DNA of 64,000 nucleotides from an uncultured Alphaproteobacteria bacterium. Its GTDB lineage: Bacteria > Pseudomonadota > Alphaproteobacteria > HIMB59 > GCA-002718135. Within the stretch, counting starts at the first letter, position 1; each line of letters begins with the position of its first letter. Shown in pieces: positions 5,347 to 47,575 of the stretch. The position numbers and the translations under genes were made by a program. The DNA lies in contig CACIQI010000001.1 of the NCBI GenBank assembly GCA_902588745.1, forward strand, positions 13,924 through 77,923, read 5' to 3'. The notes under the pieces are model-generated. The model searched no databases, was not told the DNA's origin, and worked only from the letters and a program-made list of their open reading frames with translations.

Positions 5347-7154
5347 TATTTAATACCGGCAATAATCAGATTATTTTTATCAAAACTGTATTGAATAATA
5401 TTAATTTCACAATACTCAAAAATTTTTCTCAATAATTTTTCACTAAATACGTGATGATGTAGATGTCTATTATTTAAATTATCATAAGATCTAATTTTAA
5501 AATTTTCAAAATTTCCAGCAGGTAGATCTTTTTTCAGATCGTGTTTCTCTAAAATTTCTTTAACATGAAAAAGATCTGACTCTTCAGTATTATTTTTAAA
5601 ATCATTTAGTATATGATCAAATGTCGTATATTCTCTCTTATGATCAAAATTATTTTTTTTATTTGGTAAAATTAAAAAAATACAACCACCTTTTTTCACT
5701 ACCCTTTTCCATTCAAGAACTGCTTTAATAGGGTTTGCAATATGTTCAAGGGTATGACTTGATATAACAAAATCAAATTGATCCTTCTTTAGTTTATTTA
5801 AATTTGTTGCTTCAAGTATAAATTGATTACCAATTTTGTTACCAAAATATCTAAAATTTTTACCATCAATAATTTCACCTTCCCAAAATGTTTGAGTACT
5901 AAAATTTATATTAGTAATTGAATTGACATCTTTATATACTGGAAATAAATTTTGAAAAATCCTACTTGGGCCTCCAATTTCTACTCCACTTTTATTATGA
6001 AAATAATTTTTTACAGAATCATAACTATAACTTTTTATAGTCAAAATATCTTTTATATTCCTAACAGCCTTTCTTAGATAAGAAGGGGAGTATGTAAAAT
6101 ATTCTGAAGTGTTATAGTACGTTCTATTTGTAATAATTTTATTAGTTTTAATATTAAAATTATTTAATACATTTGCATGTGGAGTATTAGCGGGTTGATC
6201 ATCAAAATACAAAGCTTCATTATGATGATTAATTAATTTTGAATATATAAGAGTAGAGCTAAGACATCCAATAACAGAAACTTTTACATTTTTGTTAATA
6301 TAATATTCTGCAGGTATACTATTACTAGCTAAAATAACTTTATTTTTAATCTTCAATTTATTTATTTGATTATTTGTCATATTTGGATGAGGTTTATGTA
6401 TAATAATTTTATTAGGGTATTGTCTTAAATAATTAATTATTAGTTTCTCAACAACAATGTTTTTATTCACTGGTGAATGAAGTTCTTCTAAATATAAAAT
6501 ATAATCTTCTTGTGGAAGATTTTTATTTTCAAATTCAATTTTTACAACTTTATCATTTTTAGTTTTTGTAACTAAATTTTGTAAAGAAAAAAAATAACCA
6601 GAGTCAAAATTGATACGATTAAAGTTACTAGAATGTGAATAATTAATATCATAAATGTGTCCTGCTACAAGTAGTTGTATAAATTGTTTAAATACAGTTA
6701 GATAATGATAGTAATAAATATTTATTATATCAAATATTTTAAAATGAGTATTAGCATAAGTTCTACTGTTAAAATCTTCACCAGCTTTAACATAATTAGA
6801 TATTCCATGGGAAAGTAGAACTTTATTCACTTTTTTTCTAAAAAAATAATTGCTAACAAAATTTACATAAGTTGAAGCATAAAAAAAAATTTCTTTATGA
6901 TTATTATTTGCTACTTCTTTTTTTATAAGATTAAAAAACTTTATTCTAGAATAGAAATTAGTGTCATCCATATATTGAATTTTATCATTGATATTACCTA
7001 ACCATTCAAAATGCTCTTTGTTTTTTTCTCCCATAAAAAATATTTTAATATCTTTATTTGCAAGATATTGATTTACAATAGACTTTGTAATTAAAAGATC
7101 ATGAATATTAAAAAGATAAAATATATGAAATTCTTTTTTTTTAAATTTGTTCAT
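5346..7154 (-). CDS. two-domain protein: unassigned Rossmann-like domain (putative glycosyltransferase) fused to a class I SAM methyltransferase
   Basis: 602 aa. Residues ~1-340 are paralogous to the ORF at 9715-10740 (shared FFAS.Y.NF.SNYFFR, LLSHG.SNY, IIHKPH, IPAE.YI). The C-terminal part has VEIGGPS and DFVISSHTLEHIANP...GGCIFLILP, which are Methyltransf_11-like. Confidence 0.55.
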   Translation of the reverse strand: MNKFKKKEFHIFYLFNIHDLLITKSIVNQYLANKDIKIFFMGEKNKEHFEWLGNINDKIQYMDDTNFYSRIKFFNLIKKEVANNNHKEIFFYASTYVNFVSNYFFRKKVNKVLLSHGISNYVKAGEDFNSRTYANTHFKIFDIINIYYYHYLTVFKQFIQLLVAGHIYDINYSHSSNFNRINFDSGYFFSLQNLVTKTKNDKVVKIEFENKNLPQEDYILYLEELHSPVNKNIVVEKLIINYLRQYPNKIIIHKPHPNMTNNQINKLKIKNKVILASNSIPAEYYINKNVKVSVIGCLSSTLIYSKLINHHNEALYFDDQPANTPHANVLNNFNIKTNKIITNRTYYNTSEYFTYSPSYLRKAVRNIKDILTIKSYSYDSVKNYFHNKSGVEIGGPSRIFQNLFPVYKDVNSITNINFSTQTFWEGEIIDGKNFRYFGNKIGNQFILEATNLNKLKKDQFDFVISSHTLEHIANPIKAVLEWKRVVKKGGCIFLILPNKKNNFDHKREYTTFDHILNDFKNNTEESDLFHVKEILEKHDLKKDLPAGNFENFKIRSYDNLNNRHLHHHVFSEKLLRKIFEYCEINIIQYSFDKNNLIIAGIK

Positions 7155-9009
7155 TTTTTTGAAACCAAAGCTCTAAATTAACTAATTGCCATAAAAACAT
7201 CATATGATTATCTTTTATCTCATTATTTTTAATTATATTTAAATGCTCATTAATAACATAATTTACATTGTTTAAGTTATAAATCCCTCTTTCTTTAAAT
7301 TTTTGAGAATTAACTAAATCCATTAAAAAACTTAAACTTGTTTGCGAAAACCACAAATGAGCAGGCGCATTCCATCCAGTTTTTTTAATTCTTTTTCTTG
7401 TTTCGTCAGGTAAAATATTTTTCATAGATTTCCTTAATAATATTTTAGTAACTCCATTTTTAATTTTAAGTATATTAGGAACTTTAAACATGAACTCAAC
7501 CAATCGATAATCAAAAAAAGGAAGAAAGTTATCAATATTATAATAATTTGCATTCCTTAGTTGTGCTCTAACGCTGCAAGGAACGGTTTCGTAAAATATA
7601 TCTTGGTAGGTTCTATTCTTTAAATAAGAATTATATGGATGTTTCATAAATGGTTGTTTTTTCTCATCAAAAATAGGTTCTAAAATTGTATTTGAATATC
7701 TATATAATCTCTCTTGATCAGCTTTGCATCTACCAGCTGTGTTTGGATCAATATTCTTAGCAATATATTCATTTGCAATTTTCAAACTCTTTTTAAATAT
7801 AGGATGGTCATGATTTTTTACCCAAAAATTTACCTCTTCATTGAATGTATTAAAATTATTTTCTGAATAAAGTAAGTCAGCAAAATAGTAAAAAAAATAT
7901 TCATATTCACCAGCATTCAATTCATCGCCACCCAAGCCTCCAAATAAATTTGAATAACCTAATTTATTAATTTCTCTACACATAATAAAGTTTGATAGCC
8001 AAGTAGCAGTAGCTATTGGTTCGTCATTTGCTTCAATCATTTTATCTAAATCAGCTTGTAAATTTGGTTTTTCTATTTCAATTGCATGCCATTTTGAAAC
8101 AAATTTATCTAGCATTGAAGATATTTCTTCACTTTCATCATATGTTTTATCTTTATAAATAGTTGAAAAGGCTGGCTGTTTATTCCCAGTTGCTTTTACT
8201 GCATTAGCCAGTACTGTTGAAGAATCCATACCTCCTGAGAGTGTAAAGGAGGGTTTCTCAACATCATTTAATCTTATCTTAACTGAGTCGAGTAATAACT
8301 CTTTATATTTTTCAACTAAATCATTTTCATTTTCTTTAAAATTTTCCTGGGTATTTTCTTCAAGTTTCCAATAACTTTCCAAAGTTAAATTTTGAATATT
8401 AATTTTTTTTTCTGAATTAAGACTTAATTTTAAAAATTTTGATGCTGGTATTTGAAATATGTTTTTATAAGGTGAATATTCAGGCTCATTATCAATATAC
8501 CTATAATGATATCCAGCAAATCTTTTTATAAAATTTATATCATAATCACTATCGTGTATAAATTTAGAAATAATTGAAGATCTGGAGGAAAACAAAAAGG
8601 ATCCATTACTTATTGAATAATAGATTGGCCTTAATCCAAATCTATCTCTACATAAAAATAATTTTTTTAATTCACTATCATAAATTGATAAAATAAAATC
8701 CCCATTAAGTTTGCATAGCATTTTAGAAATTCCAATTTCTTTGTAAAGAAAAATTAATAAGTTTCTTTTACTTTGCCTGTATTCATTAGCAATTTGATTA
8801 AGATTATAAATCTTTCCATATACAGAAAGTGTAATTTTATTTTCAAAATTTATGAAGTGATTATTATTATTATAAATTAAATTATAATCTCCATTTTTGA
8901 ATTCATTATAATCATCATATCTGCAGTTTACATTGATTAGTTTTTTTTTAAATAATTGTGTTAATCTCTCTGTATCTTTTATAAACAAGTGGCCTAGTAA
9001 TTCAGACAT
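7141..9009 (-). CDS. asparagine-synthetase-family amidoligase with degenerate glutaminase domain
   Basis: 622 aa with LCRDRFGLRPIYY and an intact PP-loop, FTLSGGMDSST. The N-terminus is MSELLG (no Cys2), and NGE is replaced by YGK. Confidence 0.75.
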   Translation of the reverse strand: MSELLGHLFIKDTERLTQLFKKKLINVNCRYDDYNEFKNGDYNLIYNNNNHFINFENKITLSVYGKIYNLNQIANEYRQSKRNLLIFLYKEIGISKMLCKLNGDFILSIYDSELKKLFLCRDRFGLRPIYYSISNGSFLFSSRSSIISKFIHDSDYDINFIKRFAGYHYRYIDNEPEYSPYKNIFQIPASKFLKLSLNSEKKINIQNLTLESYWKLEENTQENFKENENDLVEKYKELLLDSVKIRLNDVEKPSFTLSGGMDSSTVLANAVKATGNKQPAFSTIYKDKTYDESEEISSMLDKFVSKWHAIEIEKPNLQADLDKMIEANDEPIATATWLSNFIMCREINKLGYSNLFGGLGGDELNAGEYEYFFYYFADLLYSENNFNTFNEEVNFWVKNHDHPIFKKSLKIANEYIAKNIDPNTAGRCKADQERLYRYSNTILEPIFDEKKQPFMKHPYNSYLKNRTYQDIFYETVPCSVRAQLRNANYYNIDNFLPFFDYRLVEFMFKVPNILKIKNGVTKILLRKSMKNILPDETRKRIKKTGWNAPAHLWFSQTSLSFLMDLVNSQKFKERGIYNLNNVNYVINEHLNIIKNNEIKDNHMMFLWQLVNLELWFQKNEQI

Positions 9010-9013
9010 ATAT

Positions 9014-9694: not shown

Positions 9695-9714
9695 AAAATT
9701 TTTAAACTCATTTA

Positions 9715-10740: not shown

Positions 10741-10751
10741 AAATATAATAA

Positions 10752-11444: not shown

Positions 11445-11488
11445 ATTTAATTTTCTAATATATTAAAACCTTTGTAGAAACTTGTAAA

Positions 11489-12677: not shown

Positions 12678-12725
12678 ATTTTCTCCTATAATTTATTAAT
12701 AAATTATAAATTTTATTTATAAAAT

Positions 12726-15667: not shown

Positions 15668-15669
15668 AT

Positions 15670-17806: not shown

Positions 17807-17808
17807 TT

Positions 17809-22393: not shown

Positions 22394-22397
22394 GAAA

Positions 22398-24115: not shown

Positions 24116-24116
24116 T

Positions 24117-30388: not shown

Positions 30389-31290
30389 TTGAGACTTTTT
30401 ATTATCTTATAATTATTGATTTGCTCACTCAAATCTAAAATTCTTCTTTTCTTTACTAAATTAAAAAAATGCTTATGTTCAATTTTCCAAGTAGGATCAC
30501 CAAATGGTTCAATAAATTTTTTTTCCTTTGGTATACCAGAGGGCAATATTCTTTTCCTTAAATACAAAGTCGAATCAGACCATTTACATAGATTATGTAC
30601 ATGTATTGAGCCTTTTTGCCCAACAATTTCACAACTAAAGTTATTTTTCCATGATGTTAAACTCATATCAAGATAATATTTAATTTTTGTATTATCTGAA
30701 ACTATAAAAGCATTATCGTAAGAATTGTTTTCAAATTTTGAAAAATTTATTTTTCTAAATTTTAATTTGTAATCTTTAAACCAAAAATAAATTAAATCAA
30801 TGAGATGTGAGCCAAGATCAGATAAAACACCATCTCCTTTATCTCTCCATAAACTTTGTTTTACTAATCTAGCTGTTCCATTACCATAGAATATTTTACA
30901 GTAATAAATCTTTCCTAATATTTTTTTATCTATATATTTTTTTACTCTAAGAAGATTAGGTTCAAATCTGTGATTGTAAGCAACATATAATACAATTTTT
31001 TTTTGTATAATTTGAGTGTTTATTCTTTGAAGTATTTTTTCATTTTTGAAATAAAGAGGTTTTTCTATTAAAATATGTTTTGAAAATTTTATACAAAAAT
31101 TAATTAATTCAAATTTATTATAGTCAGGGGTACAAATAAAAACAGAATTATAATCGTTTATTGGCACATCATTAATTTTTTTATAATTTGCTTTTTTGTT
31201 TATTGGATCAACAGTAGCTACTACATACTTCTTTAAAAATTTTAACCTTTTTAATCCTTGAGTGCCAAGACCTACAATAATTATTTTCAT
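30385..31290 (-). CDS. Gfo/Idh/MocA-family oxidoreductase
   Basis: 301 aa with MKIIIVGLGTQG and LIEKP. It has a 4-nt overlap with the downstream dehydrogenase homolog. Confidence 0.75.
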   Translation of the reverse strand: MKIIIVGLGTQGLKRLKFLKKYVVATVDPINKKANYKKINDVPINDYNSVFICTPDYNKFELINFCIKFSKHILIEKPLYFKNEKILQRINTQIIQKKIVLYVAYNHRFEPNLLRVKKYIDKKILGKIYYCKIFYGNGTARLVKQSLWRDKGDGVLSDLGSHLIDLIYFWFKDYKLKFRKINFSKFENNSYDNAFIVSDNTKIKYYLDMSLTSWKNNFSCEIVGQKGSIHVHNLCKWSDSTLYLRKRILPSGIPKEKKFIEPFGDPTWKIEHKHFFNLVKKRRILDLSEQINNYKIIKSLK

Positions 31291-32837: not shown

Positions 32838-32842
32838 AATTT

Positions 32843-33838
32843 TTAAGACATATATTTAAACCATGATTTTGTAGCTTTATCTATATTTTTTTTATTCCAC
32901 AAGGGTGCATCTTGCCATTTATTAATTTCCTTGAGCATATTTTTAACACCTTTTTCAAACTTTACTTTAGGTTTCCATTTTAAAAATTTAGATATTTTTT
33001 CATTAGATGACCATGTACAATCTGGCTCACCTGGTCTTTTAGGTAAATAAGTTTTTTCCCCGCCTATGATATCTGCTAAGAGATTGATACTTTGAGGATT
33101 ATTTGCTCCTAAGTTAAAAATTTGATTATTTACTCTACTTTCTGCAGCTTTCACAAAAGCGTTTGCAACATCAGTAACATAAACAAAATCTCTTTTTTGT
33201 TCTCCATTTCCAACTATTGTTAAGGGTTTACCAGAAAGTTTTTGTTTAAAGAAAACACCAAAAACAGCACCATAAACTCCAGTTGTCCTAACTCTTGTTC
33301 CATAAGCGTTAAATATTCTAAGGGATATGTAATTCTGTTTATAAACTTTATGATAATGAATTATCAATTGTTCTCCCTGATATTTACTTAAAGCATAAGG
33401 ATACAATGGGTTGATTTTATGGCCTTCATTTGTTGGCGTTTTTGCTAAACCATAGCATGAAGATGAGGCGGCATATATTATTTTTTTAATATTATTGTTT
33501 CTTGCAGATTCAAGAATATTTAATGTTCCAAAAACATTAGTATTAAAGTATTTTTTTGGATTTTCGATTGAGGGTACAATATCTCCTTTCCCAGCAAAAT
33601 GAAAAACATAATCTACATCCTTAAAAAAACTACTGTTTGGTGAAATATTAATAATATTTTTTTTTTCTAACAATAGATTTTTGTTTCTTTTATGGTGAAT
33701 TAAATTATTTTCATGACCACCCGACAAATCATCTAATATTCTTACTTTATAATTTTTTTTTAATAATAAATCCACTGTATGACTGCCAATAAATCCAGCT
33801 CCTCCTGTAACGACAGCAGTCTTTTTTCTATTTGGCAT
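32843..33838 (-). CDS. NAD-dependent nucleotide-sugar epimerase/dehydratase (extended SDR)
   Basis: 331 aa with VTGGAGFIGSH and YALSKYQGE (YxxxK). Confidence 0.8.
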   Translation of the reverse strand: MPNRKKTAVVTGGAGFIGSHTVDLLLKKNYKVRILDDLSGGHENNLIHHKRNKNLLLEKKNIINISPNSSFFKDVDYVFHFAGKGDIVPSIENPKKYFNTNVFGTLNILESARNNNIKKIIYAASSSCYGLAKTPTNEGHKINPLYPYALSKYQGEQLIIHYHKVYKQNYISLRIFNAYGTRVRTTGVYGAVFGVFFKQKLSGKPLTIVGNGEQKRDFVYVTDVANAFVKAAESRVNNQIFNLGANNPQSINLLADIIGGEKTYLPKRPGEPDCTWSSNEKISKFLKWKPKVKFEKGVKNMLKEINKWQDAPLWNKKNIDKATKSWFKYMS

Positions 33839-34829
33839 TAATTTTTAGTAATTTTTTGACATTAAAATAATTTTCATTTTCAAATGTATCTATAGCAACT
33901 TGTTTCTTAAAATTTAAACATAATTCTTCTATTGCATTTTCTAATGTATATTGTGGAGAATATCCTAATATTTCCTTAATTTTGTCAGAATTAATGTGAT
34001 ACGACCTATTATCATCACTTGGAGTTTTAATCATTTCAATTTCAAAGCCAGGGAAAAATTTATTTTCAACTACATTTTTTACTTTTTGTGCAATTTCATT
34101 AATAGATAGATTTTGATATCCAACATTGAAAATCTGATTTTCTATAAGATGTTTAGGAGCTTCTAATAATAATTTTACAGCATTACAATAATCTTTAACA
34201 TGTAAGTTTGGTCTTAGTTGGTCACCACCAAAAATTTTAATGAATTTTTTATTGTACGCAAAATTTGTTAGTATATTTACAGATAGATCTAGTCTTAACC
34301 TAGGAGCGTATCCACATACAGTTGCGGGTCTAAATATTACTCCTTCGAATTTGTCATCTGTATGTTTAAGTAGAATTGGTTCACATAAACCTTTAAATTT
34401 ATTATAAAGAGTAAGAGGAAGTAAAGGATGATCCTCTTTAACATCTTTTTTATCGGAAACACCATAAACAGAACTAGATGAAGCATATATAAATCTTTTA
34501 ATACCTGCTTTCTTAGCTGCAAGAACCATTGGTTCAAAGGCATCATAATTAACGCTTGTAGATAAATTTTCATCTAATTCAAAACTCGCATCATTTGAAA
34601 TACATGCAAGGCTGACAAAATAATCATGATCTTTTGCGCATTCATTTATTTTATTACTGTCTCTTATATCGCCTTTTATTATTTTTAAGTTTTGATTTTT
34701 TTTTGGCAGGAATTCATCCCCAAAATACATAATATCATAAACTGTTACAAAGTATCCTGAATCTAGCAACAATGGTACTAGTTGACTTCCGCAATATCCT
34801 GCACCACCTGTAATGAAAACTTTTTTCAT
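33828..34829 (-). CDS. NAD-dependent nucleotide-sugar epimerase/dehydratase (extended SDR)
   Basis: 333 aa with ITGGAGYCGS, SSSSVYG and YNKFK (YxxxK). Confidence 0.8.
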   Translation of the reverse strand: MKKVFITGGAGYCGSQLVPLLLDSGYFVTVYDIMYFGDEFLPKKNQNLKIIKGDIRDSNKINECAKDHDYFVSLACISNDASFELDENLSTSVNYDAFEPMVLAAKKAGIKRFIYASSSSVYGVSDKKDVKEDHPLLPLTLYNKFKGLCEPILLKHTDDKFEGVIFRPATVCGYAPRLRLDLSVNILTNFAYNKKFIKIFGGDQLRPNLHVKDYCNAVKLLLEAPKHLIENQIFNVGYQNLSINEIAQKVKNVVENKFFPGFEIEMIKTPSDDNRSYHINSDKIKEILGYSPQYTLENAIEELCLNFKKQVAIDTFENENYFNVKKLLKINAK

Positions 34830-34831
34830 AA

Positions 34832-35557
34832 TTATTTTATTTTATATCCAGCATTAGAAGCATCATTAAAAAACATTTTAACAGTATCTAGAGAAAATTC
34901 GTTCAAATCTTTTCCTATAGATTCTAACTTAGAAAGTAAATTTATTGGTACTGTGATAATATCGGTTTTAGTCTCTATTGCTTGAAAAATATTTAATAGC
35001 TCTCTAGGACTGGCCCATAGTAATTCACAATTTTTATTTAAATTTGTTCTATCTGAACATTCTTTCATTATCGTCATTGGATCAATTCCTGTATCAGCTA
35101 TTCTTCCTGCAAAAACTGATAGAATCAATGGCGTATCTACCTCACCAATTTCTTTCAACAAGGTATTTAATTGATTAAAAGTAAAAATTGCAGTTACATT
35201 ACATTTAACACCACTAAGAAGAAGATCTTTTACTAGATTATTGGTCGATATCCCTTTTGTATTTGTGATAGGAATTTTGACATATACATTTTCACCCCAA
35301 CTAGAAATTATTTTTGCTTGTTCATTCATTTCATCAATATCGTCAGCAAATACTTCAAAAGAAATTGATTTTTCATTACTAATGTTTTTAATTAATTTTT
35401 TAGCAAAATCGTTATAATCTTCAACTCCGGCATTCTTCATAAGAGTTGGATTTGTTGTAAAACCTTTTATCAATTTATTTTCATTTAACTCTAACATGCC
35501 TTTAAAATCGGCGCCATCAGCAAAAATTTTGATATTATCTAGATTATCTACCATCAA
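34832..35557 (-). CDS. transaldolase / fructose-6-phosphate-aldolase-family enzyme
   Basis: 241 aa with FADGADF, GFTTNPTLM and VYVKIP (Schiff-base Lys context). Confidence 0.8.
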   Translation of the reverse strand: MMVDNLDNIKIFADGADFKGMLELNENKLIKGFTTNPTLMKNAGVEDYNDFAKKLIKNISNEKSISFEVFADDIDEMNEQAKIISSWGENVYVKIPITNTKGISTNNLVKDLLLSGVKCNVTAIFTFNQLNTLLKEIGEVDTPLILSVFAGRIADTGIDPMTIMKECSDRTNLNKNCELLWASPRELLNIFQAIETKTDIITVPINLLSKLESIGKDLNEFSLDTVKMFFNDASNAGYKIK

Positions 35558-36086
35558 ATTTTAAAATAAAGTTTGTTGCGTCAAATAAATTTTTAAATGT
35601 TTTATAGTTATTTATATTCGATTCCTCAATTAAATCATTTTTAATAAATATTGGAGTGCATCCAGCTTTTCTTCCTGCAACCATATCAGAATGCCTATCT
35701 CCAATCATGAAACTTCGTTTTAAATTGATTTGATACTTTCTGGCTAGATCAGTAATCATTTTTGGCTTAGGTTTTCTACAATCACAATTTGCAGTTTGAC
35801 TATGAAAGCAATATTTTATTTCATCTATTTTTACTTCTTTTAATATTTTGGCATTCATTTTAAAAATAATTTCTTTTTTAATTTTTTTATTTCCAACATC
35901 TGGCTGATTACTTACTATAAAAATTTTATATTTTTTTTTTTTTAATTTAATTATTGCATCAATAGATCTATTTATAAATTTAAAATCTGAGATATTTTTT
36001 GGAGCAAAGCATTTATTATTAATGTATATACATTCATTTACTACACCATCGCGATCTAAAAAAACAGCGATATTATTTTCTACCAT
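35544..36086 (-). CDS. gmhB: D,D-heptose 1,7-bisphosphate phosphatase-type HAD phosphatase
   Basis: 180 aa with FLDRDGVVN, the zinc motif CFH...CDCRKPKP and GDRHSD. Confidence 0.85.
   Translation of the reverse strand: MVENNIAVFLDRDGVVNECIYINNKCFAPKNISDFKFINRSIDAIIKLKKKKYKIFIVSNQPDVGNKKIKKEIIFKMNAKILKEVKIDEIKYCFHSQTANCDCRKPKPKMITDLARKYQINLKRSFMIGDRHSDMVAGRKAGCTPIFIKNDLIEESNINNYKTFKNLFDATNFILKFDGR
35931..35943. repeat. 13-nt A/T homopolymer inside the gmhB coding sequence
   Basis: Read directly: T13 on the plus strand (A13 in the mRNA sense, encoding LKKKKY). It is the longest homopolymer I noticed in the window. Confidence 0.9.
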
Positions 36087-36676
36087 TTAGTTTTATTAGC
36101 TTGTAGCAAGGGATGAGATACAAGACAATGCCAAACAACAGATTGAAATGACTCTGATATAGGTGTAATTAATTTTTGATCTTGTGATTCTATCAAAATA
36201 GAAACATTAGAATTTTTTGCAGCATATCCATTTTTTTTTCCAATAATTGAGAAAATCTTGGATTTTTTCAATTTTGCAAACTTTATAGCGTTTACAATAT
36301 TAATACTAACTCGTTTTTTTATATTTCCTCCTCCAACAGAAAAAATTAATATGGCATCCTTATTATTTAATTTACTAATTTTTAACCATTCTGAAATACT
36401 ACTATCCCATCCTTCATCATTAATTCTTGCTGTTAATTCGGATACATTATCAATTGGAGAATAAGTTTCAATTTTGCATAATTTTCTAAAATCATTTACT
36501 GCATGTGATGCATTTCCCGCACTTCCTCCTACACCTATAATAAAAAGTCTTCCATTTTTTTTTCTCAAATTAGAAAGTTGATAAGCTAATTTTTCAATTT
36601 TATTATAATCAATATTTTTAGAAGAAAGAATAATATTGCTAAAATAATTTTCTATGTGGTTAGTCATTATGATCAC
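36080..36676 (-). CDS. gmhA: SIS-domain sugar-phosphate isomerase (phosphoheptose isomerase type)
   Basis: 198 aa with GVGGSAGNASHAVNDF and FSVGGGN. It is translationally coupled to gmhB. Confidence 0.8.
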   Translation of the reverse strand: MIIMTNHIENYFSNIILSSKNIDYNKIEKLAYQLSNLRKKNGRLFIIGVGGSAGNASHAVNDFRKLCKIETYSPIDNVSELTARINDEGWDSSISEWLKISKLNNKDAILIFSVGGGNIKKRVSINIVNAIKFAKLKKSKIFSIIGKKNGYAAKNSNVSILIESQDQKLITPISESFQSVVWHCLVSHPLLQANKTKW

Positions 36677-39624: not shown

Positions 39625-40500
39625 TTAACTAGACAAATAATTTTCTATAATTTTTTTTGTTGTAAAATTTTTATATAATAATTTTTTTTCAATTTTTTTA
39701 GTGTCAAATACTGGAGTTATCTTATTTGAATTAATATATTTTATTTTAGACTTTGAATTATAATGCTTAATAATAAAATTAATTATTTCATATATTTTTA
39801 TGGGATTACGAGCTGCAAATAAATATGTTCCAAAATTGATTTTCTTTTTATTTACTAAAGTATCACAAAAACTGTAAATATCTTTAGGAGTAATTATTCC
39901 ATTAAATTTCTCATTCTTATTAAAAATAATTAAATTTTTTGAGTTCTTTATATCATTAATTATTTTTTTTAACCAGGGCCTTCGATTTTCAGATGATTTT
40001 GTCAGCACCCCAGGAAGTCTTAAATTAATTAATTCTTTTTTATTTATAGTAAAATACTTTTCAGAAATTAATTTAGTTAAGCCAAGTATTTCTTGGTTTT
40101 TAAAATTACTATTTTCATCTATTGTTTTAGTCATAAATTCACCATAAACAGCTACACTTGAAAGATTGATTAATATAGTTTTTTTATTTTTAGATAACTC
40201 TAAAATATTTTTTAAACAATTAACGTTTTTTTTTATAATTTCATCATAAGAACTTTTCTTAGAAAATTCATGTGTTACGATACAATTAATAATAATATTG
40301 GGAATTTTATTTATCTTGATATTTTTTTCAAAATTATGCTTTATAAATTTTAAGTTTTTATTTTTTTTAAAATTATTCAAATTAAATTTATTTCTAGCAA
40401 AAGCATATACACTATATTTTTTGCTAAAATTGTTACATAATTCTCTTCCAACTTCTCCTGCTGCTCCGAGAATAAAAATTACAGGTTTATTTTTTTTCAA
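39625..40500 (-). CDS. atypical SDR-fold protein (epimerase-like, catalytic Tyr replaced)
   Basis: 291 aa with ILGAAGEVGREL and SSVAVYG. The expected YxxxK reads ILGLTK (Leu for Tyr). Confidence 0.6.
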   Translation of the reverse strand: MKKNKPVIFILGAAGEVGRELCNNFSKKYSVYAFARNKFNLNNFKKNKNLKFIKHNFEKNIKINKIPNIIINCIVTHEFSKKSSYDEIIKKNVNCLKNILELSKNKKTILINLSSVAVYGEFMTKTIDENSNFKNQEILGLTKLISEKYFTINKKELINLRLPGVLTKSSENRRPWLKKIINDIKNSKNLIIFNKNEKFNGIITPKDIYSFCDTLVNKKKINFGTYLFAARNPIKIYEIINFIIKHYNSKSKIKYINSNKITPVFDTKKIEKKLLYKNFTTKKIIENYLSS

Positions 40501-41351
40501 TTTTCTATTTTTACTGGATTACTTGTATGCCTATCTTTATTATGGTCACTTTCTGGGCTATACAAACCAATCCACCATCTGCCACTTAAGTCTTGATCAT
40601 TATAATTATTACATGAATTGTCTACAGTAACACTATCAACACCATGTTTCATAGTTGCATAGAATATTCCTACGTCACCAGCGTTAATTTTGTTTTCACA
40701 ATTAATTTTATTCTCATTTTTATCTACAAAATAAGTACCCCCATTGGTAAAATCCTGATTTTGTTCTGACATATATATAGAAATAATTAATCTTTGATTA
40801 ATTGGATGATGTTGATGTGGTTCAATAAAACCTGTTTTATTTGGATATCTAACAATTTGAATTCTATCTACAATTTTATCTTTGGGTGTATTGTTTTTAA
40901 ATGTATCAAAATCTAATCCACCTAAAAATTTGATTGACGACCAATAAGGATCAAATTTACTAAATAAAGAAAAATCATCATCATTCCAACGAAAAAAATA
41001 AAACGAATGTCTTATGGCATTAATTGAATATTTGTTGAGAGTTGACTCATCTTGAATTCTATGAAAATTTGGACATCCCTCTTTCATTTTATGAAAACTA
41101 CTCTTCGTATTTTTTGAATATTCAGTTAATTGTAATTTTAAATTATCGATAAAATATTGATTGAAACAATTTTTGATTAAAATAAAATTACCTTCGTAAA
41201 GATTATCAATCAATTTATACATTTCGTTAAAATTTTTTTTATCAAAAATATTTAAAAATTCTTGAGAATCAATATTTGATATATCTCTAAAATAATTTGG
41301 ATAATTTTTTGAATTTTCTATTTTTTTCCAGTACTCATCTATACTTATCAT
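40497..41351 (-). CDS. hypothetical protein, possible metal-dependent dioxygenase/cupin-like
   Basis: 284 aa with a His-rich segment IEPHQHHP followed ~45 aa later by MKHGVD. It is coupled by 4-nt overlaps on both sides. The fold assignment is speculative. Confidence 0.3.
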   Translation of the reverse strand: MISIDEYWKKIENSKNYPNYFRDISNIDSQEFLNIFDKKNFNEMYKLIDNLYEGNFILIKNCFNQYFIDNLKLQLTEYSKNTKSSFHKMKEGCPNFHRIQDESTLNKYSINAIRHSFYFFRWNDDDFSLFSKFDPYWSSIKFLGGLDFDTFKNNTPKDKIVDRIQIVRYPNKTGFIEPHQHHPINQRLIISIYMSEQNQDFTNGGTYFVDKNENKINCENKINAGDVGIFYATMKHGVDSVTVDNSCNNYNDQDLSGRWWIGLYSPESDHNKDRHTSNPVKIEN

Positions 41352-42025
41352 TTTGATACTAAGGCCAATGTTTTTGAATTAGTGAAATAATAATCACTAT
41401 TATATCTAGTATGCTTTAGAACTTCAAGCCATTCATTTTCTAAAAGTATTGTAGATCCTAATAACGTCCAATTTTTAAACATCCAATATTCTTTAGGTGT
41501 GCTATATGAAGCTAAATTAATGAAACTTTTATTATTACTTACTCTAACAATTTCTTTTAGAGATCTAATAGCATCTCTAAGATTTAATGAGTAAACAACT
41601 CCTATCGCAATAACAAAGTCAAAATAAGAATCCTGATAGTTTATTTCAGTAAATGATCCAATTTTAATATTTTTTTTAATTGATTTCATAGAATTATTAA
41701 CTGCGTAATTTGAAACTTCTATCCCATAAACTTCAGAATTAGGATAAAGTAACTTTATATCATGGAGAAGAAAACCTTTTTCACATCCTATTTGTAAAAT
41801 TCTGGCATTTTTTTTTAATTTGTATTTTTTAAAAATCCTTTTTGCAACAGGTATCCATCTTCCATCATATTTAAAGCCCCCATATCCATATTTTCTATTT
41901 CCATCATATAAATTTTTATCTCTATAGGAAGAAATTATTCTTTCTTTAATAGTTCTAGTTTTGGTATTAGCGACTCTTTTAATTTTTGATTTTGGTAAAT
42001 CTTTTAACAAATTGTATTTTCTCAT
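41348..42025 (-). CDS. class I SAM-dependent methyltransferase (paralog of 24117-24767)
   Basis: 225 aa with YGYGGFKYDGRWIPVAKRI and ILQIGCEKGFL. Confidence 0.75.
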   Translation of the reverse strand: MRKYNLLKDLPKSKIKRVANTKTRTIKERIISSYRDKNLYDGNRKYGYGGFKYDGRWIPVAKRIFKKYKLKKNARILQIGCEKGFLLHDIKLLYPNSEVYGIEVSNYAVNNSMKSIKKNIKIGSFTEINYQDSYFDFVIAIGVVYSLNLRDAIRSLKEIVRVSNNKSFINLASYSTPKEYWMFKNWTLLGSTILLENEWLEVLKHTRYNSDYYFTNSKTLALVSK

Positions 42026-42028
42026 TAC

Positions 42029-42685
42029 TCACTTAAATTCTAATAAATTTTGAATAAATAAATCTTGAAAATTATCAATGATAAAATCAGCATCTTTTAA
42101 AATAAATCTATTATTTGTATTTGTAATTGCTATACATCTCATTTTAGCTTTTTTTGCAGATATTATACCCAATGGAGCATTTTCTATAACTAAACAATTA
42201 TCGTAACCAATATTAAGTTTTTTTGAAGCCATTAAAAATGGTTCTGGATGGGGTTTATTATTAGTGACCACATCTCCTGAAATTATAACATCAAATAATT
42301 TAATTAATTTTTTAGGCAGTGAATGATTAACTTGTATTGAGTGACTAGAAGTAACTAATCCTAAATAAAAATTCTTTTCTTTAATTTTAACTAAAGTTTT
42401 TTCTACAAAAGGATATAATTTAATCTTATTAACTTTACTTAGGTAAATTTCTTTTTTTTTTTTAACTATACTTGATACTATTCTTTCATTATATTTTATA
42501 TTATTTTTATCAAAAAAAAATTGAGTTATTTTATCAAGAGACATTCCTTCAAGTGGATAATAATCAGTTTCATTTATATTTATATTGAAATTTTTAAGGA
42601 CTTCCTTCCAAGACAAAAAATGTAGCTTCATACTTTTTATCAAAGTACCATCTAAATCAAAAAGTATTAATCTATTATTTTGCAA
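42029..42685 (-). CDS. HAD-superfamily hydrolase (beta-phosphoglucomutase/phosphatase subfamily IA)
   Basis: 218 aa with LFDLDGTLI, VTSS, NKPHPEPF and a C-terminal acidic motif. Confidence 0.8.
   Translation of the reverse strand: MQNNRLILFDLDGTLIKSMKLHFLSWKEVLKNFNININETDYYPLEGMSLDKITQFFFDKNNIKYNERIVSSIVKKKKEIYLSKVNKIKLYPFVEKTLVKIKEKNFYLGLVTSSHSIQVNHSLPKKLIKLFDVIISGDVVTNNKPHPEPFLMASKKLNIGYDNCLVIENAPLGIISAKKAKMRCIAITNTNNRFILKDADFIIDNFQDLFIQNLLEFK
42452..42463. repeat. 12-nt A/T homopolymer inside the HAD hydrolase coding sequence
   Basis: Read directly: T12 on the plus strand (A12 in the mRNA sense, encoding KKKK). Confidence 0.9.
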
Positions 42686-43199
42686 ATTTTGAAAGAATTA
42701 ATTTCATCCAATCGCCAAGATATTTATAGTGAGGTGAGGTAATAATTTTTTTATCTTCAACAACTGGTCCCTTATAATAATAAGCTCCAGAATTATTTAT
42801 ATCATCTTCAATGCTATAGTACCCAGAAATTTTTGTATTCTTTACTATTTTTGCACTAATTAAAAGTTGAGCTCCATGACATATACTGCCAATATAAATT
42901 TTGTTTTTGTAAAAATCCTTAATTATTGAAAGTGTTTTTTTATCTTGTCTTAAATACTCCATAGCTTTTGCACCACCTGGTAATATTAATAAATCATAAT
43001 TTTTGGTTTTTACTTTACTCATTTTAATTAGTTTATGATCTTTGTTTGGTGGAATTTGCGTACCTAATATACCTTTAACAGGAGCATCACCAAGTAAACA
43101 AACGTCTACTTTAAATTTTTCTTCTAAAAGCCTATAATATGGATATATAAATTCATGATCTTGTACTAAATTTCCTGAAAGCATTAGTGCTTTATTCAT
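42675..43199 (-). CDS. DJ-1/PfpI-family protein
   Basis: 174 aa with EFIYPYYRL, LILPGG and the nucleophile elbow SICHGAQLL. Confidence 0.8.
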   Translation of the reverse strand: MNKALMLSGNLVQDHEFIYPYYRLLEEKFKVDVCLLGDAPVKGILGTQIPPNKDHKLIKMSKVKTKNYDLLILPGGAKAMEYLRQDKKTLSIIKDFYKNKIYIGSICHGAQLLISAKIVKNTKISGYYSIEDDINNSGAYYYKGPVVEDKKIITSPHYKYLGDWMKLILSKFAK

Positions 43200-45009
43200 A
43201 TCTTTTCATATAATTTTTAAAACTTAAATTTTCAATGATTTTTTTATCTATAAATGGATATAAATCCTCATAAGAAGTGTAGATACTTTTACCATCCTTA
43301 TCTCTTCTATTAATCATTTTTGGCTCTTGTGGCTGCTCATCATCCATGATCAATTCACAAATAAAAGGTGATTTTGAATTAATAATTTTTTTTATATATT
43401 TGTTTAAATCTTTGTGGTGTTTTATTTTTAAATAAGAAATCTTATGTGATTTGGCTATTAAAGAGAAGTTTGGAAATGAAAGACCTGATGATGAATTAGA
43501 TCCCATTATTCGACCTTTAAAGCCAAGTTGCTGGGTCTGTTTAATAGTTAAATAACCCTTGTTGTTATAAATAAAAATCTTTATCGGTAATTTATTATGC
43601 ATAACTGTAGCTAGTTCTTGAATATTCATTTGCAAACCGCCATCGCCAGTTACACATATAATGTTATTTTTTGGATTAGCATAATATGCCCCAATTGCTG
43701 CTGGTAGGCCCCAACCCATTGGTGCATGACCTGAGTTTGTATAAATTTTTTGTCCAAGCTTATTTTTAAAAGATTGATATGTGCCAACAAAAGAAAGGCC
43801 CATATCTGTAACAATAGTAGAATTTTTGTTTAATTTTGAACTTAAGACATCAATAAAATAATATGAATTTACATATTTTTTTTGATTGATAATTTTTTTA
43901 TTAAGAATAGGAAATTTTTCTCTTATAAATCTACAATAATTAAGCCAATTTTTATTATAAAAAAACTTTTTATTTATAATTTTATTATGTAAGATTTTAA
44001 AAAATTCGTAAGCATCAGAATTAATTTTTAAATCAAAATTAAGGAAATGGTTTTTTAATTCAAAGCTATCAACATCAATTGAAACTTTTTTTGCATTTCT
44101 TGCAAAGTCTGAAAAGTTATAGCCAGTTACCATATAGGGCAATCTACTACCAACTGATATGAATAAATCACAGTTCTGAACAATAAAATTTGATCCCCTT
44201 TCGGCAAAAGCACCTGGTCTACCAAGATTCATTTTATCTTTTGATTCAAATAGATCTATCGCATTCCAAGAAAGACAATAAGGTATTTTAGTTTTTTTGA
44301 TAATTTTTTTTACTAATAATTGAGAGTTAGATATTCTTACACCTTGACCAAAATAAAATAATGGCCTTTTAGAATTTTCTATCATTTTTAATAACTTGTT
44401 AATTTTCATAGAAATAGAACTATTATTTATTTTTGATAATTTATTTCCTATTGAGATTTTTTTATTTCTTTGGTTTATTTCTGAGTTTTGAATATCAGCA
44501 GGAATATCAATTAAAGCTGGTCCAGGTCTACCATTATTAGTTTCATAATAAGCTTTTTCTAATGTCTCATAAACTTCACTTGGAGAAGTAATCATTTTTG
44601 AATACTTTGTTATTGGTTTAGAAAGAGAAACTATATCTATTTCTTGAACACCTTTTTGTCTAATTTTTAAATTACTTATGGTTTGATTTAAAAATACTTG
44701 TCCAGATAAAACTAACAAAGGCACAGAGTCTATCCAGGCACTAGCAATTCCTGTAAGGGCGTTTGTACCTCCAGGTCCAGTTGTTACTAAAGCACATCCA
44801 GTCATATTTTTTGATCTCGCATAACTCTCAGCAGCAAAAACAGAAGCTTGTTCATGATGATTACAAATATATTTGAGATTAGATCTAAAAAGAGCATCAC
44901 ATAAGAAAATTGACCCACCACCTGAAACAGTAAATACTGTTTTAATTTTTTTTGATTTAAGAAAATCAATTACATAATCAGATACAGTATAACGAGAATT
45001 AGGTTTCAT
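43192..45009 (-). CDS. thiamine-diphosphate-dependent enzyme, acetolactate-synthase-like (intact motifs)
   Basis: 605 aa with the HHEQ catalytic-Glu motif, TTGPGGTN, GRPGP and the ThDP/Mg motif GDGGLQMN...IYNNKGY. Confidence 0.85.
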   Translation of the reverse strand: MKPNSRYTVSDYVIDFLKSKKIKTVFTVSGGGSIFLCDALFRSNLKYICNHHEQASVFAAESYARSKNMTGCALVTTGPGGTNALTGIASAWIDSVPLLVLSGQVFLNQTISNLKIRQKGVQEIDIVSLSKPITKYSKMITSPSEVYETLEKAYYETNNGRPGPALIDIPADIQNSEINQRNKKISIGNKLSKINNSSISMKINKLLKMIENSKRPLFYFGQGVRISNSQLLVKKIIKKTKIPYCLSWNAIDLFESKDKMNLGRPGAFAERGSNFIVQNCDLFISVGSRLPYMVTGYNFSDFARNAKKVSIDVDSFELKNHFLNFDLKINSDAYEFFKILHNKIINKKFFYNKNWLNYCRFIREKFPILNKKIINQKKYVNSYYFIDVLSSKLNKNSTIVTDMGLSFVGTYQSFKNKLGQKIYTNSGHAPMGWGLPAAIGAYYANPKNNIICVTGDGGLQMNIQELATVMHNKLPIKIFIYNNKGYLTIKQTQQLGFKGRIMGSNSSSGLSFPNFSLIAKSHKISYLKIKHHKDLNKYIKKIINSKSPFICELIMDDEQPQEPKMINRRDKDGKSIYTSYEDLYPFIDKKIIENLSFKNYMKRYE

Positions 45010-47575
45010 ATTTAATTTTTTCTATTATCATATTTTTTTCTAAAATACTTTCATTGAAGTATGGATCCATATCTTCTAATGGTCTAGGAATCCACTCATT
45101 TTTGTCATTAATATAAAAACCTTGTTTTGAAATTATATCTTGATCATCTTTAATTTTGACAGCTAATATTGATGAAGTTTTCTCGCTTAAGAATTGTTTT
45201 AATGTTTTTAAATAATTTTTTTTATTTGTTATTTTAAAAACTTTTAGACCAAAGTAATTACAAATTTTAAATAATGAGTTAAAATTATATTTACTAGAAT
45301 AGTCTGTAGTTACAAACCTTTCACCAAAAAATTTTTTTTGAGATACTTTTAAAATAAAATTATCATCTTTAATCATTAATAAAATTTTTAAATTTATATT
45401 ATATTTTTTTATGAATTCTAAATCATAAATATTTTTTTGAAAACCAGCTATTTCAGTTATGCAAACAATATTTTTATTCTTAATTCCAACACCTAATGAT
45501 AGTGGAATTGCAAATCCTCTTGTTTCAATACCAGGAGAGCAAATTAATCTATGATTTTTTTTATATTTAAATGCTAACGTTGAATAAAGATGAGGGCCAT
45601 AATTATCCGCTATAATTATATAGTCATCTTTTAAATTTTCTGAAAAATCACTAAACAATTTTAATGGAAAAATATCTTTTTTGTTATCTATTATTTTACT
45701 ACCATCAGAATTATAATAATGCAGTCCATTAAAATTTTTTTTCAATCTATTACAATAATTTAACCAATCTTTAATATTATTATTACATTTTATCCTATTT
45801 TTATATTTGATTAAAATTGTTAGATAGGCATTTAAGTCAAAATTAGCCTTATAATGAATTTCAATATTATTTTTTTTTAATTCATTTAAATCAATATCAA
45901 CAGAAAAAATTTTTGCTTTTCTTGCAAAGTTTTTAGTTGCTCTTCCTGTCACAGTTTGACTTAGTCTGCATCCTAGAGAGATTATAAGATCACAATTTTG
46001 AATAATAAAATTTGAGCTCCTTTGACCAAAAGGACCAGGAACGCCATAATTATTTTTATTATAATAATTTAATAAATCAGGAACCTTACTACTAAGTAAA
46101 ATTGGAATATCTAAATTTTTTAAAAAATCATTTAATAATAATTTTGAAGATGATATTTTTATACCATTTCCTAGAATTATAACTGGCTTTTTTGAAATAT
46201 TAATTAATGAGATTAATTTTTTTACAGATGCTATTATTTTTTTATTATCTGACTTTTTTTTCGAAATTTTATAATTCACAAGATTGTTTTCATTAATAAT
46301 CTTTGATTGGATATTAATTGGCACTTCTATTATTGAAGGACCTGGCCTTCCCTCAGATGCAAAATGAAAAGCTTTCATTAAGTCATATTTTATTGATAAT
46401 TCATTGTTAACAATTTTAGTGAACTTAGAAATTTTTTTTATATTATTTGATAATCTAAACTCTTTTATGCCAAATTGTCTTACATTTTTATTTTTTATAA
46501 TTGATTGACCAATAATAAAGACTATTGGGATAGATTCTATCCAGCAATTTAAAATAGATGAAAATACTTCAGCAGATGCGCTTCCAGAAGAAAGTATCAC
46601 TACTGCTGGTTTTTTATGTATTAAAGAATATCCTTCAGCAGCTTTTGATGATGTTGCCGAATTATAACTATAAATTAAATTAATGCTTTCAGATCTTCCT
46701 AGTGAATCTAAAATATGTAAGTTTTGTGATCCTGGGGTAACAAAAATCTCTGTATATTTATTTTTTTCTAAAAACTTTACTAAAAAATCTGAAACTTTAA
46801 TATTACTGCTATTTTTACTAATTAATAAATAATTAAATTCTTTTAAGTTCGATTTATTAATAAAATATTTAAAATCCTTATATGAAAGAAAATTGTTAAA
46901 GTTAAAATTTTTAAAAATTTTATTAATTTTACTAAAATTATTTAGTATCATAAATAAATCATTGTTATTAAAGTTACGATAATTAGAATCATCTTTTTGA
47001 AATTTTTTGAAACTCAGTGTGGTTTCTCCAAAAATCTTTTTAAGATTATTTTCATTTGATGTCTTATTATACGACAGATAATTATAATTATTAGTCTTAT
47101 AAGAATAACTATTATTATTTTCATAACCTTTACCTTTTCTACCGTAACTATCTTTTAATCTAACTAAATCTTGTTTATTTACAGGCGTTTCAATCTCCAA
47201 TAAGTAAGAACCATTATCTGAAATAGATTTAGATCTATGAAAAACTTTTTTATCAATATAGCATCCATTACTAGATTTAATTTTTATTTTTTTTTCAAGA
47301 GTATTGAATAAGATTTCACCAGATAAAACAAATAAAGCAGTAGATTTATTTGGATGACAGTGCAGAGAGGTTTTTTCACCTTTTTTGATATACAAAATAG
47401 TCATTGCAAAATATCTATTAGAAAACAGTAGATATTCATAACCCCATGGTTTTTTTACTACTATTTTTGAGTAATCTTGTTTAGTTTTTTTTATATCTGC
47501 GTAGTTTGTAAAGTTAAGGAGAGTATCAATATCTTTTTTTTTTATAACAAAATTATTAAAATTATTAGTTTGCAT
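44999..47575 (-). CDS. cupin domain fused to a degenerate ThDP-enzyme-like module
   Basis: 858 aa. Residues ~40-135 (KKPWGYEYLL...SLHCHPNKSTALFVLSGE) form a cupin. Residues ~255-858 are colinear with the 605-aa neighbour, but HHEQ is replaced by SYNS and GDG..NN by EIAG..KDDN. Confidence 0.7.
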   Translation of the reverse strand: MQTNNFNNFVIKKKDIDTLLNFTNYADIKKTKQDYSKIVVKKPWGYEYLLFSNRYFAMTILYIKKGEKTSLHCHPNKSTALFVLSGEILFNTLEKKIKIKSSNGCYIDKKVFHRSKSISDNGSYLLEIETPVNKQDLVRLKDSYGRKGKGYENNNSYSYKTNNYNYLSYNKTSNENNLKKIFGETTLSFKKFQKDDSNYRNFNNNDLFMILNNFSKINKIFKNFNFNNFLSYKDFKYFINKSNLKEFNYLLISKNSSNIKVSDFLVKFLEKNKYTEIFVTPGSQNLHILDSLGRSESINLIYSYNSATSSKAAEGYSLIHKKPAVVILSSGSASAEVFSSILNCWIESIPIVFIIGQSIIKNKNVRQFGIKEFRLSNNIKKISKFTKIVNNELSIKYDLMKAFHFASEGRPGPSIIEVPINIQSKIINENNLVNYKISKKKSDNKKIIASVKKLISLINISKKPVIILGNGIKISSSKLLLNDFLKNLDIPILLSSKVPDLLNYYNKNNYGVPGPFGQRSSNFIIQNCDLIISLGCRLSQTVTGRATKNFARKAKIFSVDIDLNELKKNNIEIHYKANFDLNAYLTILIKYKNRIKCNNNIKDWLNYCNRLKKNFNGLHYYNSDGSKIIDNKKDIFPLKLFSDFSENLKDDYIIIADNYGPHLYSTLAFKYKKNHRLICSPGIETRGFAIPLSLGVGIKNKNIVCITEIAGFQKNIYDLEFIKKYNINLKILLMIKDDNFILKVSQKKFFGERFVTTDYSSKYNFNSLFKICNYFGLKVFKITNKKNYLKTLKQFLSEKTSSILAVKIKDDQDIISKQGFYINDKNEWIPRPLEDMDPYFNESILEKNMIIEKIKYET

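Follow-up and report, generated by a model that had tools for sequence, protein, structure and literature searches.

Introduction

When a glycan-biosynthesis island holds several enzymes that lack the textbook residues of their families, are these genes decaying, are they degenerate copies that the island has recruited, or do they belong to old subfamilies with active sites of their own? The question is raised by a 64,000-nucleotide stretch of the genome of an uncultured marine Alphaproteobacteria bacterium (the window; positions 13924-77923 of contig C1 of the genome labeled G000), in which Pfam and NCBIfam identify a single very large island of this kind. Five of its enzymes, designated P0001 to P0005, depart from the canonical catalytic motifs. 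Comparison with their relatives suggests that all five are, with high probability, functional members of old conserved subfamilies, which are defined by their non-canonical residues and were brought to the island in gene cassettes, and that they would carry out the steps proposed below for each. They are members of the AsnB, short-chain dehydrogenase/reductase (SDR), UDP-glucose 6-dehydrogenase (UGDH) and thiamine diphosphate (ThDP) enzyme families:

7141..9009, minus strand: P0001, an AsnB-like adenylating enzyme of 622 amino acids (Pfam Asn_synthase, 5e-45)
28289..29137, minus strand: P0002, a protein of extended-SDR fold in which YxxxK has become HxxxH (H125, H129; alignment to 3m2p)
29141..30388, minus strand: P0003, a UGDH-family protein with Asn (N250) for the catalytic Cys (TIGR03026, 202.1 bits against a cut-off of 189.8; all three Pfam domains)
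39625..40500, minus strand: P0004, an extended SDR with a TTG start and Leu for the catalytic Tyr
44999..47575, minus strand: P0005, a cupin (residues ~35-150), a small middle domain (~175-255) and a YerE-like ThDP scaffold (256-858) without the Glu, GDG and NN

The substitutions are genuine and conserved

The five proteins were assigned to families with Pfam and NCBIfam, and the residues in question were checked by HMMER pairwise alignment to solved structures. These alignments were made independently of the first-pass annotation that had reported the missing residues; they show that all of the substitutions are real, and neither the profiles nor the structural comparisons leave room for an alignment artefact. 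Orthologues were compared across 116 related genomes and in a cross-phylum scan of one genome per species, of which the 80 best matches were analysed; cross-phylum gene neighbours were counted at 80 loci, with flanks of 6 kb each. Labels beginning with G denote the genomes compared, and those beginning with L denote loci. In the orthologues all five changes prove to be conserved clade signatures. The five open reading frames (ORFs), of 282-858 codons, are all uninterrupted, and at their ends they share 4-14 nt with the next gene or leave a gap of 0-3 nt.

P0003, a UGDH-family protein with Asn in place of Cys

In alignments of P0003 with 3gg2 and 4a7p, its SGGNLERD lies opposite GGSCFPKD, which places Asn at the Cys site; the site motif of the family reads LGI[SA]GGN[LI]ERD, and the N-terminal dinucleotide motif is GMTHLG. 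The catalytic Lys and Asn (ExxKxxxN; SAELCKIAINL) and the Asp (ERD) are retained, and K193, N197 and D254 are invariant in the P0003 family alongside N250. Asn occupies the site in 121/121 of the nearest database clusters (42-99% identity) and in 80/80 of the best-matching genomes across phyla, and the related genomes hold six orthologues, all with GGN[LI]xRD, and a housekeeping UGDH with GGSCFPKD. A relative of P0003 is encoded in at least 556 species genomes; the 80 best matches span Legionellales, Coxiellaceae, Chlamydiales, Rickettsiales, Rhodospirillales, Burkholderiales, Nitrospirae, Acidobacteriota, Leptospiraceae and one cultured Methylocystis. A distant UGDH-like relative (L043, G088:C19:9057-10280; 33% identity) has His at the nucleophile position (GGHIERG).

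The C6 of a heptose or octose is a secondary alcohol, at which only one two-electron oxidation would be possible. Because such a carbon permits a single step only, the Cys, which forms a thiohemiacetal for the second oxidation, would be dispensable on a sugar of this kind, and the Lys, Asn and Asp that P0003 keeps are compatible with a single hydride transfer. By analogy with the lincosamide pair LmbL/LmbZ, P0003 and its Gfo/Idh/MocA partner most likely carry out a side-chain oxidation or dehydration.

A conserved operon, probably for a higher-carbon sugar

P0003 and P0002 lie within a set of genes that we refer to as cassette A, the other elements of which, together with the canonical UGDH of the island, are these:

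31290..36676, minus strand: SIS isomerase, HAD phosphatase, transaldolase (TIGR02134), two SDRs and an HldE-like nucleotidyltransferase-kinase, the front of the cassette
30385..31290, minus strand: Gfo/Idh/MocA protein with canonical GxGxxG, EKP and NHRF motifs, its stop overlapping the start of P0003 by 4 nt
24784-28284: a 3.5-kb insert in the window's copy, between P0002 and its usual methyltransferase
21935..24767, minus strand: methyltransferase, split transketolase (N and C subunits) and NUDIX protein, the tail of the cassette
20637-21926: canonical UGDH paralog

The gene order (SIS isomerase, HAD, transaldolase, SDR, SDR, HldE-like, Gfo/Idh/MocA, Asn-type UGDH, HxxxH SDR, methyltransferase, split transketolase, NUDIX) is the same in five related genomes. 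Across phyla, the neighbours of the Asn-type UGDH at the 80 loci are an SDR of the HxxxH type (78), a Gfo/Idh/MocA protein (72), an HldE-like protein (67), a methyltransferase (62), two further SDRs (61 and 59), a transaldolase (48) and a transketolase (25). The Gfo/Idh/MocA gene stands upstream of the Asn-type UGDH in 72/80 genomes and the P0002-type SDR downstream of it in 78/80; with P0003 and P0002 adjacent in 78/80 genomes, the five altered enzymes are not independent cases.

On this gene content, cassette A is an operon of about 12 genes predicted to make a nucleoside-diphosphate (NDP)-activated 7- or 8-carbon sugar. The sugar would be built by the transaldolase, the SIS isomerase, the kinase/nucleotidyltransferase, the phosphatase and the epimerases, and P0003, the Gfo/Idh/MocA protein and P0002 would form the tailoring core. 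The lincosamide octose genes encode a comparable set, with LmbR as transaldolase, LmbN as isomerase, LmbP as kinase, LmbK as phosphatase, LmbO as nucleotidyltransferase (a guanylyltransferase), LmbM as epimerase, LmbL as dehydrogenase and LmbZ as oxidoreductase (PMC4351081), and the conversion of GDP-octose into GDP-lincosamide is carried out by LmbM, LmbL, CcbZ and CcbS (PMC12945683).

The operon might instead make an ordinary modified heptose by the GmhA/HldE/GmhB route, with P0003 as a C6 or C7 dehydrogenase functionally unrelated to LmbL. The SIS, HldE-like and HAD proteins do match heptose-pathway models, and the C6 of a heptose is equally a secondary alcohol, but all of these matches score far under the curated cut-offs (the HldE-like protein at 31290-32837 reaches 142 against an HldE cut-off of 521). 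Furthermore, most of the genomes (48/80, with short flanks) have a transaldolase in the operon, which the octose route needs (LmbR) and the classical heptose route does not. We consider an ordinary heptose the less likely reading, and take an LmbL-like tailoring of a higher-carbon sugar as the working assignment.

Several further observations were made on this cassette. The HldE-like protein has its domains reversed, with a cytidylyltransferase-like N-terminal domain and a PfkB kinase C-terminal domain. The insert encodes a methyltransferase, a 514-amino-acid protein without a Pfam match and an RmlD-like SDR with YxxxK, and G108 has two homologues of the 514-amino-acid protein at the equivalent place. 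A metagenome-assembled genome (MAG) titled 'uncultured Streptomycetaceae bacterium' (L126, G116) carries the Gram-negative-type cassette and not an lmb cluster; its label looks doubtful, and its genome family consists of genomes of 2-7 Mb. In the Coxiella lipopolysaccharide literature we found no mention of the cassette A operon.

P0002, an extended SDR with HxxxH

Aligned with 3m2p, the HGIMH of P0002 lies opposite YGVSK. Both His residues are invariant in 120 homologues (48-100% identity), as are S101, S102, D103, D156, H158, R186, D187, H188 and H248, and a hand count of 83 orthologues across phyla gives HxxxH in 66, YxxxH in 14, FxxxH in two and YxxxQ in one. Throughout the phyla, and bar the one YxxxQ, the SDR gene that follows the Asn-type UGDH encodes His where the Lys would stand. 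As judged from these alignments, the change of Lys to His is the signature of the P0002 family, and that of Tyr to His is the mark of a large sub-branch. The sub-branch that keeps Tyr (L157 and 16 other loci, with YGxMH, FGxMH twice and YGIMQ once) has a shorter C-terminal His motif and includes a complete Candidatus Pelagibacter chromosome.

The AlphaFold2 model of P0002, with a mean confidence score (pLDDT) of 94.9, supports the extended-SDR fold. Its Rossmann motif reads GKNGFIA; across the family, G11 and F15 alone are invariant in this motif, and the second Gly is often Ser. GDP-fucose synthase epimerises its substrate with extra acid/base residues; since the site of P0002 is rich in His and is set in a fold resembling that of GDP-fucose synthase, the model points to a protein that is probably an acid/base epimerase or isomerase acting on the keto sugar left by the preceding step, and not an enzyme of hydride transfer.

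Among the extended SDRs of this genome, two to three of 12 are atypical. A third extended-SDR-like gene, outside the island (L184, G000:C7:50611-51234), shows no clear YxxxK in alignment.

P0004, an SDR with Leu in place of Tyr

P0004 has a pair of conserved partners:

40497..42025, minus strand: a 2-oxoglutarate (2OG)-Fe(II) oxygenase-like gene and a methyltransferase, kept in G108

The LGLTK of P0004 lies opposite YGISK in 2yy7 and 5y1d, while GxxGxxG (GAAGEVG), the Ser and the Lys are kept. By an exhaustive HMMER search, the 27 nearest 50%-identity clusters and the orthologue from G108 have Leu, 104 more distant relatives have Tyr, and the Lys is present in 132/132; canonical YGxSK relatives at 31-35% identity occur in G103, G012 and G024. 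The G108 orthologue has matching neighbours, namely the 2OG-oxygenase-like gene and the methyltransferase. With a best PDB match at an E-value of 1e-4, P0004 has no close characterised member. As an SDR with Ser, Leu and Lys at its site, it would bind NAD(P) and act together with the 2OG-oxygenase-like protein and the methyltransferase.

P0001, an AsnB-like protein without Cys1

Two genes of the island bear on P0001:

9014..9694, minus strand: class I methyltransferase (Pfam), the upstream partner of P0001
13835..15667, minus strand: canonical AsnB paralog (MCGIAG, NGEIYN; GATase_7 4e-38, Asn_synthase 1e-57), used as comparator

P0001 begins MSELLG where the canonical paralog, to which it is 28% identical, begins MCGIAG, so that Cys1 is replaced by Ser; the NGEIYN site reads YGKIYN, and the PP-loop SGGMDSS is intact. 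It scores 196.9 bits against TIGR01536, under the cut-off of 267.1, and 180 bits against the second-best NCBIfam model, for lasso-peptide cyclases, the cut-off of which is 525. No orthologue was found in 115 related genomes. Metagenomic orthologues exist in L079 (49% identity, GC 46%), which begins MSRITG, and in L080 (45%, GC 66%), which begins (V)ARIAG; the Cys1 position is thus Ser, Ser and Ala in organisms of 23%, 46% and 66% GC. At the NGEIYN site these two read DGAIYN and DGFAY, their synthetase domain is very well conserved, and orthologues of the methyltransferase (41-43% identity) lie directly upstream in both.

From these motifs we conclude that the glutaminase domain of P0001 is dead and its synthetase domain intact. 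P0001 would be an ATP-dependent carboxylate-amine ligase or amidating enzyme that makes no use of glutamine and works with the conserved methyltransferase; its likely job is to form an amide on a sugar carboxylate from a nitrogen donor other than glutamine.

P0005, a cofactor-less ThDP fusion beside an active relative

P0005 and its neighbours make up a second conserved set, cassette B:

47579..49781, minus strand: two DegT aminotransferases upstream of P0005, their position conserved
43192..45009, minus strand: canonical YerE-like ThDP carboligase (HHEQ, GDGG, NN), overlapping P0005 by 11 nt
42029..43199, minus strand: DJ-1/PfpI protein and HAD hydrolase

JanthE (8rph), a YerE-like carboligase (PMC12188165), matches the ThDP part of P0005 over its whole length (3e-60, residues 257-850), and Pfam finds the PYR, middle and PP domains all present. 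Where JanthE has HHE, CDGG and NN, P0005 has YNS (with Ser for the Glu), EIAG and IK. The cupin-ThDP architecture recurs in ~65 database clusters of 820-895 amino acids from Acidobacteria, Elusimicrobia, Deltaproteobacteria and marine bacteria, five of which retain HHEQ, GDGG and NN. The dead fusions lack GDG and NN in 63/63 cases, EDRG and K/R/S-S being the commonest replacements; their Glu position holds E in 52, D in seven and S in four, the window's P0005 among the last, and the Asp position of the clade is variously D, G, E, A, K or I. In a quick maximum-likelihood search on the ThDP parts, which gave a tree with long branches, the dead fusions come out as a single clade (SH-aLRT 100), with the canonical fusions branching just outside it and the stand-alone neighbours forming a separate clade.

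The dead fusions are accompanied in 9/9 cases by a separate canonical ThDP gene (~600 amino acids), which lies immediately downstream in eight. The canonical-motif fusions for which DNA was available have a single ThDP-like region (3/3), and a fourth has no separate ThDP gene in the visible 5 kb. The order of cassette B (DegT, DegT, cupin-ThDP fusion, YerE-like enzyme, DJ-1/PfpI, HAD, methyltransferase) is present also in G108, G100 and G050. In an Elusimicrobia MAG and others the cassette follows directly after the HldE-Gfo-UGDH-SDR block, and all four family genomes that carry the fusion have the Asn-type UGDH. The two cassettes are physically joined in other organisms, and therefore both would serve one pathway; at least three of the five proteins belong to this linked super-pathway, which is inherited as cassettes.

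The cupin of P0005 has an invariant His-x-His, a third invariant His and two invariant Glu residues. In a structural search its model came nearest to small metal cupins (archaeal phosphomannose isomerase and KdgF among them); the matches of the cupin profile to PDB sequences were all weak and of a generic cupin kind. P0005 would be a metal-cupin enzyme fused to a ThDP scaffold unable to bind the cofactor, and the gene arrangement makes the adjoining active YerE-like carboligase its most likely partner.

In ThDP enzymes two subunits contribute to each site, one with its PYR domain and one with its PP domain. Retention of the Glu without GDG and NN is what would be expected if the PYR domain of the fusion completed the site of an active partner, and this suggests a heterodimer with one working site, to which the active subunit would give its PP domain and the fusion its PYR domain, and in which the cupin step would be linked to C-branching of an amino keto-sugar. 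In its full form we put the model forward tentatively, as a possibility that we would not yet favor: the fusion as an obligate partner in an asymmetric heterodimer, with a single ThDP site (active PP and fusion PYR with its Glu), and with the cupin-isomerised amino keto-sugar passed straight to C-branching. Two points weigh against it, namely that the model is based on gene adjacency, Glu retention and a quick long-branch tree, and that the window's own P0005 lacks the Glu, which weakens the argument from a Glu supplied in trans for this copy. If the model is true, the pair would be the first ThDP sugar carboligase to be assisted by a pseudoenzyme, and the model could explain the instability, or lack of activity on ketones, that several YerE-like enzymes show when expressed alone (PMC12247030). 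The words 'fusion', 'inactive' and 'heterodimer' are absent from the text of that review of YerE-like enzymes.

DJ-1/PfpI and HAD genes stand beside every YerE-like or fusion gene seen, canonical or dead (the window and L162-L171), and they perhaps supply the donor keto acid. The active fusions of L162 and L167 are flanked by radical SAM, B12-binding and SPASM genes, of which the window's cassette has none.

Genomic setting

The genome measures 1.5 Mb, is ~80% complete and has a GC content of 28.9%, that of the island being 23-25%; among named organisms it is closest to Candidatus Pelagibacter and to MAGs labeled 'Rickettsiales'. The minus strand carries nearly every gene from 3 to 51159, and the majority overlap or abut their neighbours. 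The island comprises rmlBDCA, a NeuB module, numerous methyltransferases, a heptose/octose-type activation module, the split transketolase, three DegT aminotransferases, two ThDP enzymes, an ABC exporter and glycosyltransferases. Two further features complete the picture:

3-3277: rmlB-rmlD-rmlC-rmlA, a canonical dTDP-rhamnose set at the start of the island, all four with strong family scores
38416-39624: an ORF without a Pfam match and with a TIGR04372 glycosyltransferase domain (5.7e-42), between P0004 and the ABC exporter

Discussion

The five altered enzymes of this island are best explained as inherited members of subfamilies with sites of their own, and the alternatives can be weighed against the same data. 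It is improbable that all five are purely non-catalytic subunits, that is, scaffolds or regulators, with no new chemistry among them. The residues of the former ThDP site vary in the P0005 clade, as they would in a pseudoenzyme, and position 1 of the P0001 glutaminase domain varies as well (S, S, A). Against this, N250, K193, N197 and D254 of P0003 and H125, H129, S101, D103 and H158 of P0002 are strictly invariant, which argues for working sites; the PP-loop synthetase domain of P0001 is highly conserved, the His-His-His-Glu motif of the P0005 cupin is invariant, and P0004 retains GxxGxxG, Ser and Lys. The first-pass annotation had anticipated either new-function enzymes or non-catalytic subunits, and both appear to be represented, the former by P0003, P0002, probably P0004 and the synthetase domain of P0001, and the latter by the ThDP part of P0005.

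Decay, or recent inactivation of paralogs that the island tolerates, is very hard to reconcile with the data. The points that would favor it are the divergence of P0005, which is 35-37% identical to its orthologues where its neighbours are 57-76% identical (the YerE-like neighbour 57-59%), the lack of a P0001 orthologue in the 115 related genomes, and damage to P0002 in relatives. The last of these also counts against our own interpretation, the P0002 orthologues being frameshifted in two of the five related draft genomes:

L069/L070 (G100:C7), ~19640-20480: P0002 orthologue with two frameshifts
L073 (G103:C14), ~17580-18427: P0002 orthologue with one frameshift

In G100 the adjoining canonical DegT gene is likewise split, into two ORFs. 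These frameshifts may be errors in AT-rich draft assemblies or real local decay, and they are without bearing on the window's own P0002. On the other side, ORFs of 282-858 codons are intact in DNA of 23% GC, the replacement residues are invariant over hundreds of sequences, and full-length orthologues at 35-50% identity are found in distant phyla. Measured against an 80%-identical orthologue, dN/dS is 0.11 for the whole of P0005 (cupin 0.05, linker 0.07, PYR 0.09, middle 0.25, PP 0.11), inside the 0.03-0.20 of its neighbours (YerE-like 0.07, DJ-1 0.03, HAD 0.20, methyltransferase 0.14), although with dS at ~1 all of these values are rough. Intact and tightly packed ORFs, conserved residues and the dN/dS of P0005 thus bear out the earlier view that these are not decaying pseudogenes.

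An island-specific process, in which the island repeatedly duplicated its own enzymes and turned the copies degenerate, can be set aside as highly improbable: canonical paralogs of three of the families do lie in the island (AsnB at 13835-15667, UGDH at 20637-21926, ThDP at 43192-45009), but the altered copies are 25-30% identical to these and 40-50% identical to clade mates in other phyla with the same substitutions, the loss in the ThDP fusions was a single event long before this genome existed, and the genes arrive with conserved partners as cassettes.

The proposal that the island systematically recruits degenerate paralogs is accordingly not upheld, the changes being ancient and shared across phyla and the local canonical paralogs only 25-30% identical. 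There is no evidence for a process peculiar to the island. The five cases amount to about three to four acquisitions: two of the genes would have come with cassette A, one and perhaps two with cassette B, and P0001 with its paired methyltransferase; because the cases are linked, and because non-canonical members are common in these large families, five altered enzymes are not clearly above what chance and linkage would give. Nor is their presence in a streamlined genome the paradox it had been taken for, since the genes are under purifying selection. What does stand is the suggestion of unexplored chemistry, the chemistry of these enzymes being uncharacterised: on the sequence evidence, the five genes are working parts of an uncharacterised sugar chemistry.

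Missing textbook residues in glycan islands can therefore be read as the mark of conserved, selectable subfamilies and not of decay. Thousands of database entries carry misleading automatic names, among them 'UDP-glucose 6-dehydrogenase', 'UDP-glucose 4-epimerase', 'acetolactate synthase' and 'asparagine synthase', and the operon of Asn-type UGDH, Gfo and HxxxH SDR concerns at least 556 bacterial species, intracellular lineages included. The cofactor-less ThDP fusion that always lies beside an active relative is the most original element here; the pair offers a testable case of an enzyme turned partner of its active relative, and may aid biocatalysis with YerE-like enzymes.

Comparison with known systems

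Each of the five proteins can be set beside a characterised system. P0003 and its partner resemble LmbL and LmbZ (CcbZ) of the lincomycin and celesticetin pathways in pairing a UGDH-family protein, there called a 'C8 dehydrogenase', with a Gfo/Idh/MocA protein, and they share the context of transaldolase, SIS isomerase, kinase, phosphatase, nucleotidyltransferase and SDR epimerases; the likeness is drawn from gene content. LmbL with CcbZ is reported to carry out a 6,8-dehydration. Unlike the lincosamide route, cassette A has a Gram-negative-type host and its genes lie in a surface-glycan island, its kinase and nucleotidyltransferase are fused, and the genes that follow encode the HxxxH SDR, the methyltransferase and the split transketolase in place of the lincosamide proteins.

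The top structural matches to the P0002 model are GDP-L-fucose synthase (GMER/FX) and UDP-sugar 4-epimerases, with TM-scores of 0.80-0.86. P0002 keeps the triad Ser (SSDAVY) and the RD motif of these enzymes and differs from them in having His/His for Tyr/Lys and three extra invariant His residues. Atypical SDRs without the catalytic Tyr are known among NmrA-like proteins and PIP-family reductases, and P0004 likewise has the Rossmann motif and the Lys without the Tyr; unlike them it is of the extended, sugar-nucleotide type, with YGxSK proteins as its nearest canonical relatives.

Beta-lactam synthetase, carbapenam synthetase and the lasso-peptide cyclases have lost the glutaminase nucleophile and kept the adenylating domain intact. 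P0001 shares with these the two-domain AsnB build, the intact ATP/PP-loop and the absence of the N-terminal Cys, whereas it reaches no model cut-off, lies in a glycan island beside a conserved methyltransferase, and probably acts on a sugar carboxylate and not on a peptide or beta-amino acid. Finally, P0005 shares with the YerE/JanthE carboligases an alignment over the whole ThDP region and the context of a sugar-nucleotide pathway with aminotransferases, and it is set apart from them by the loss of Glu, GDG and NN and by the cupin added at its N-terminus.

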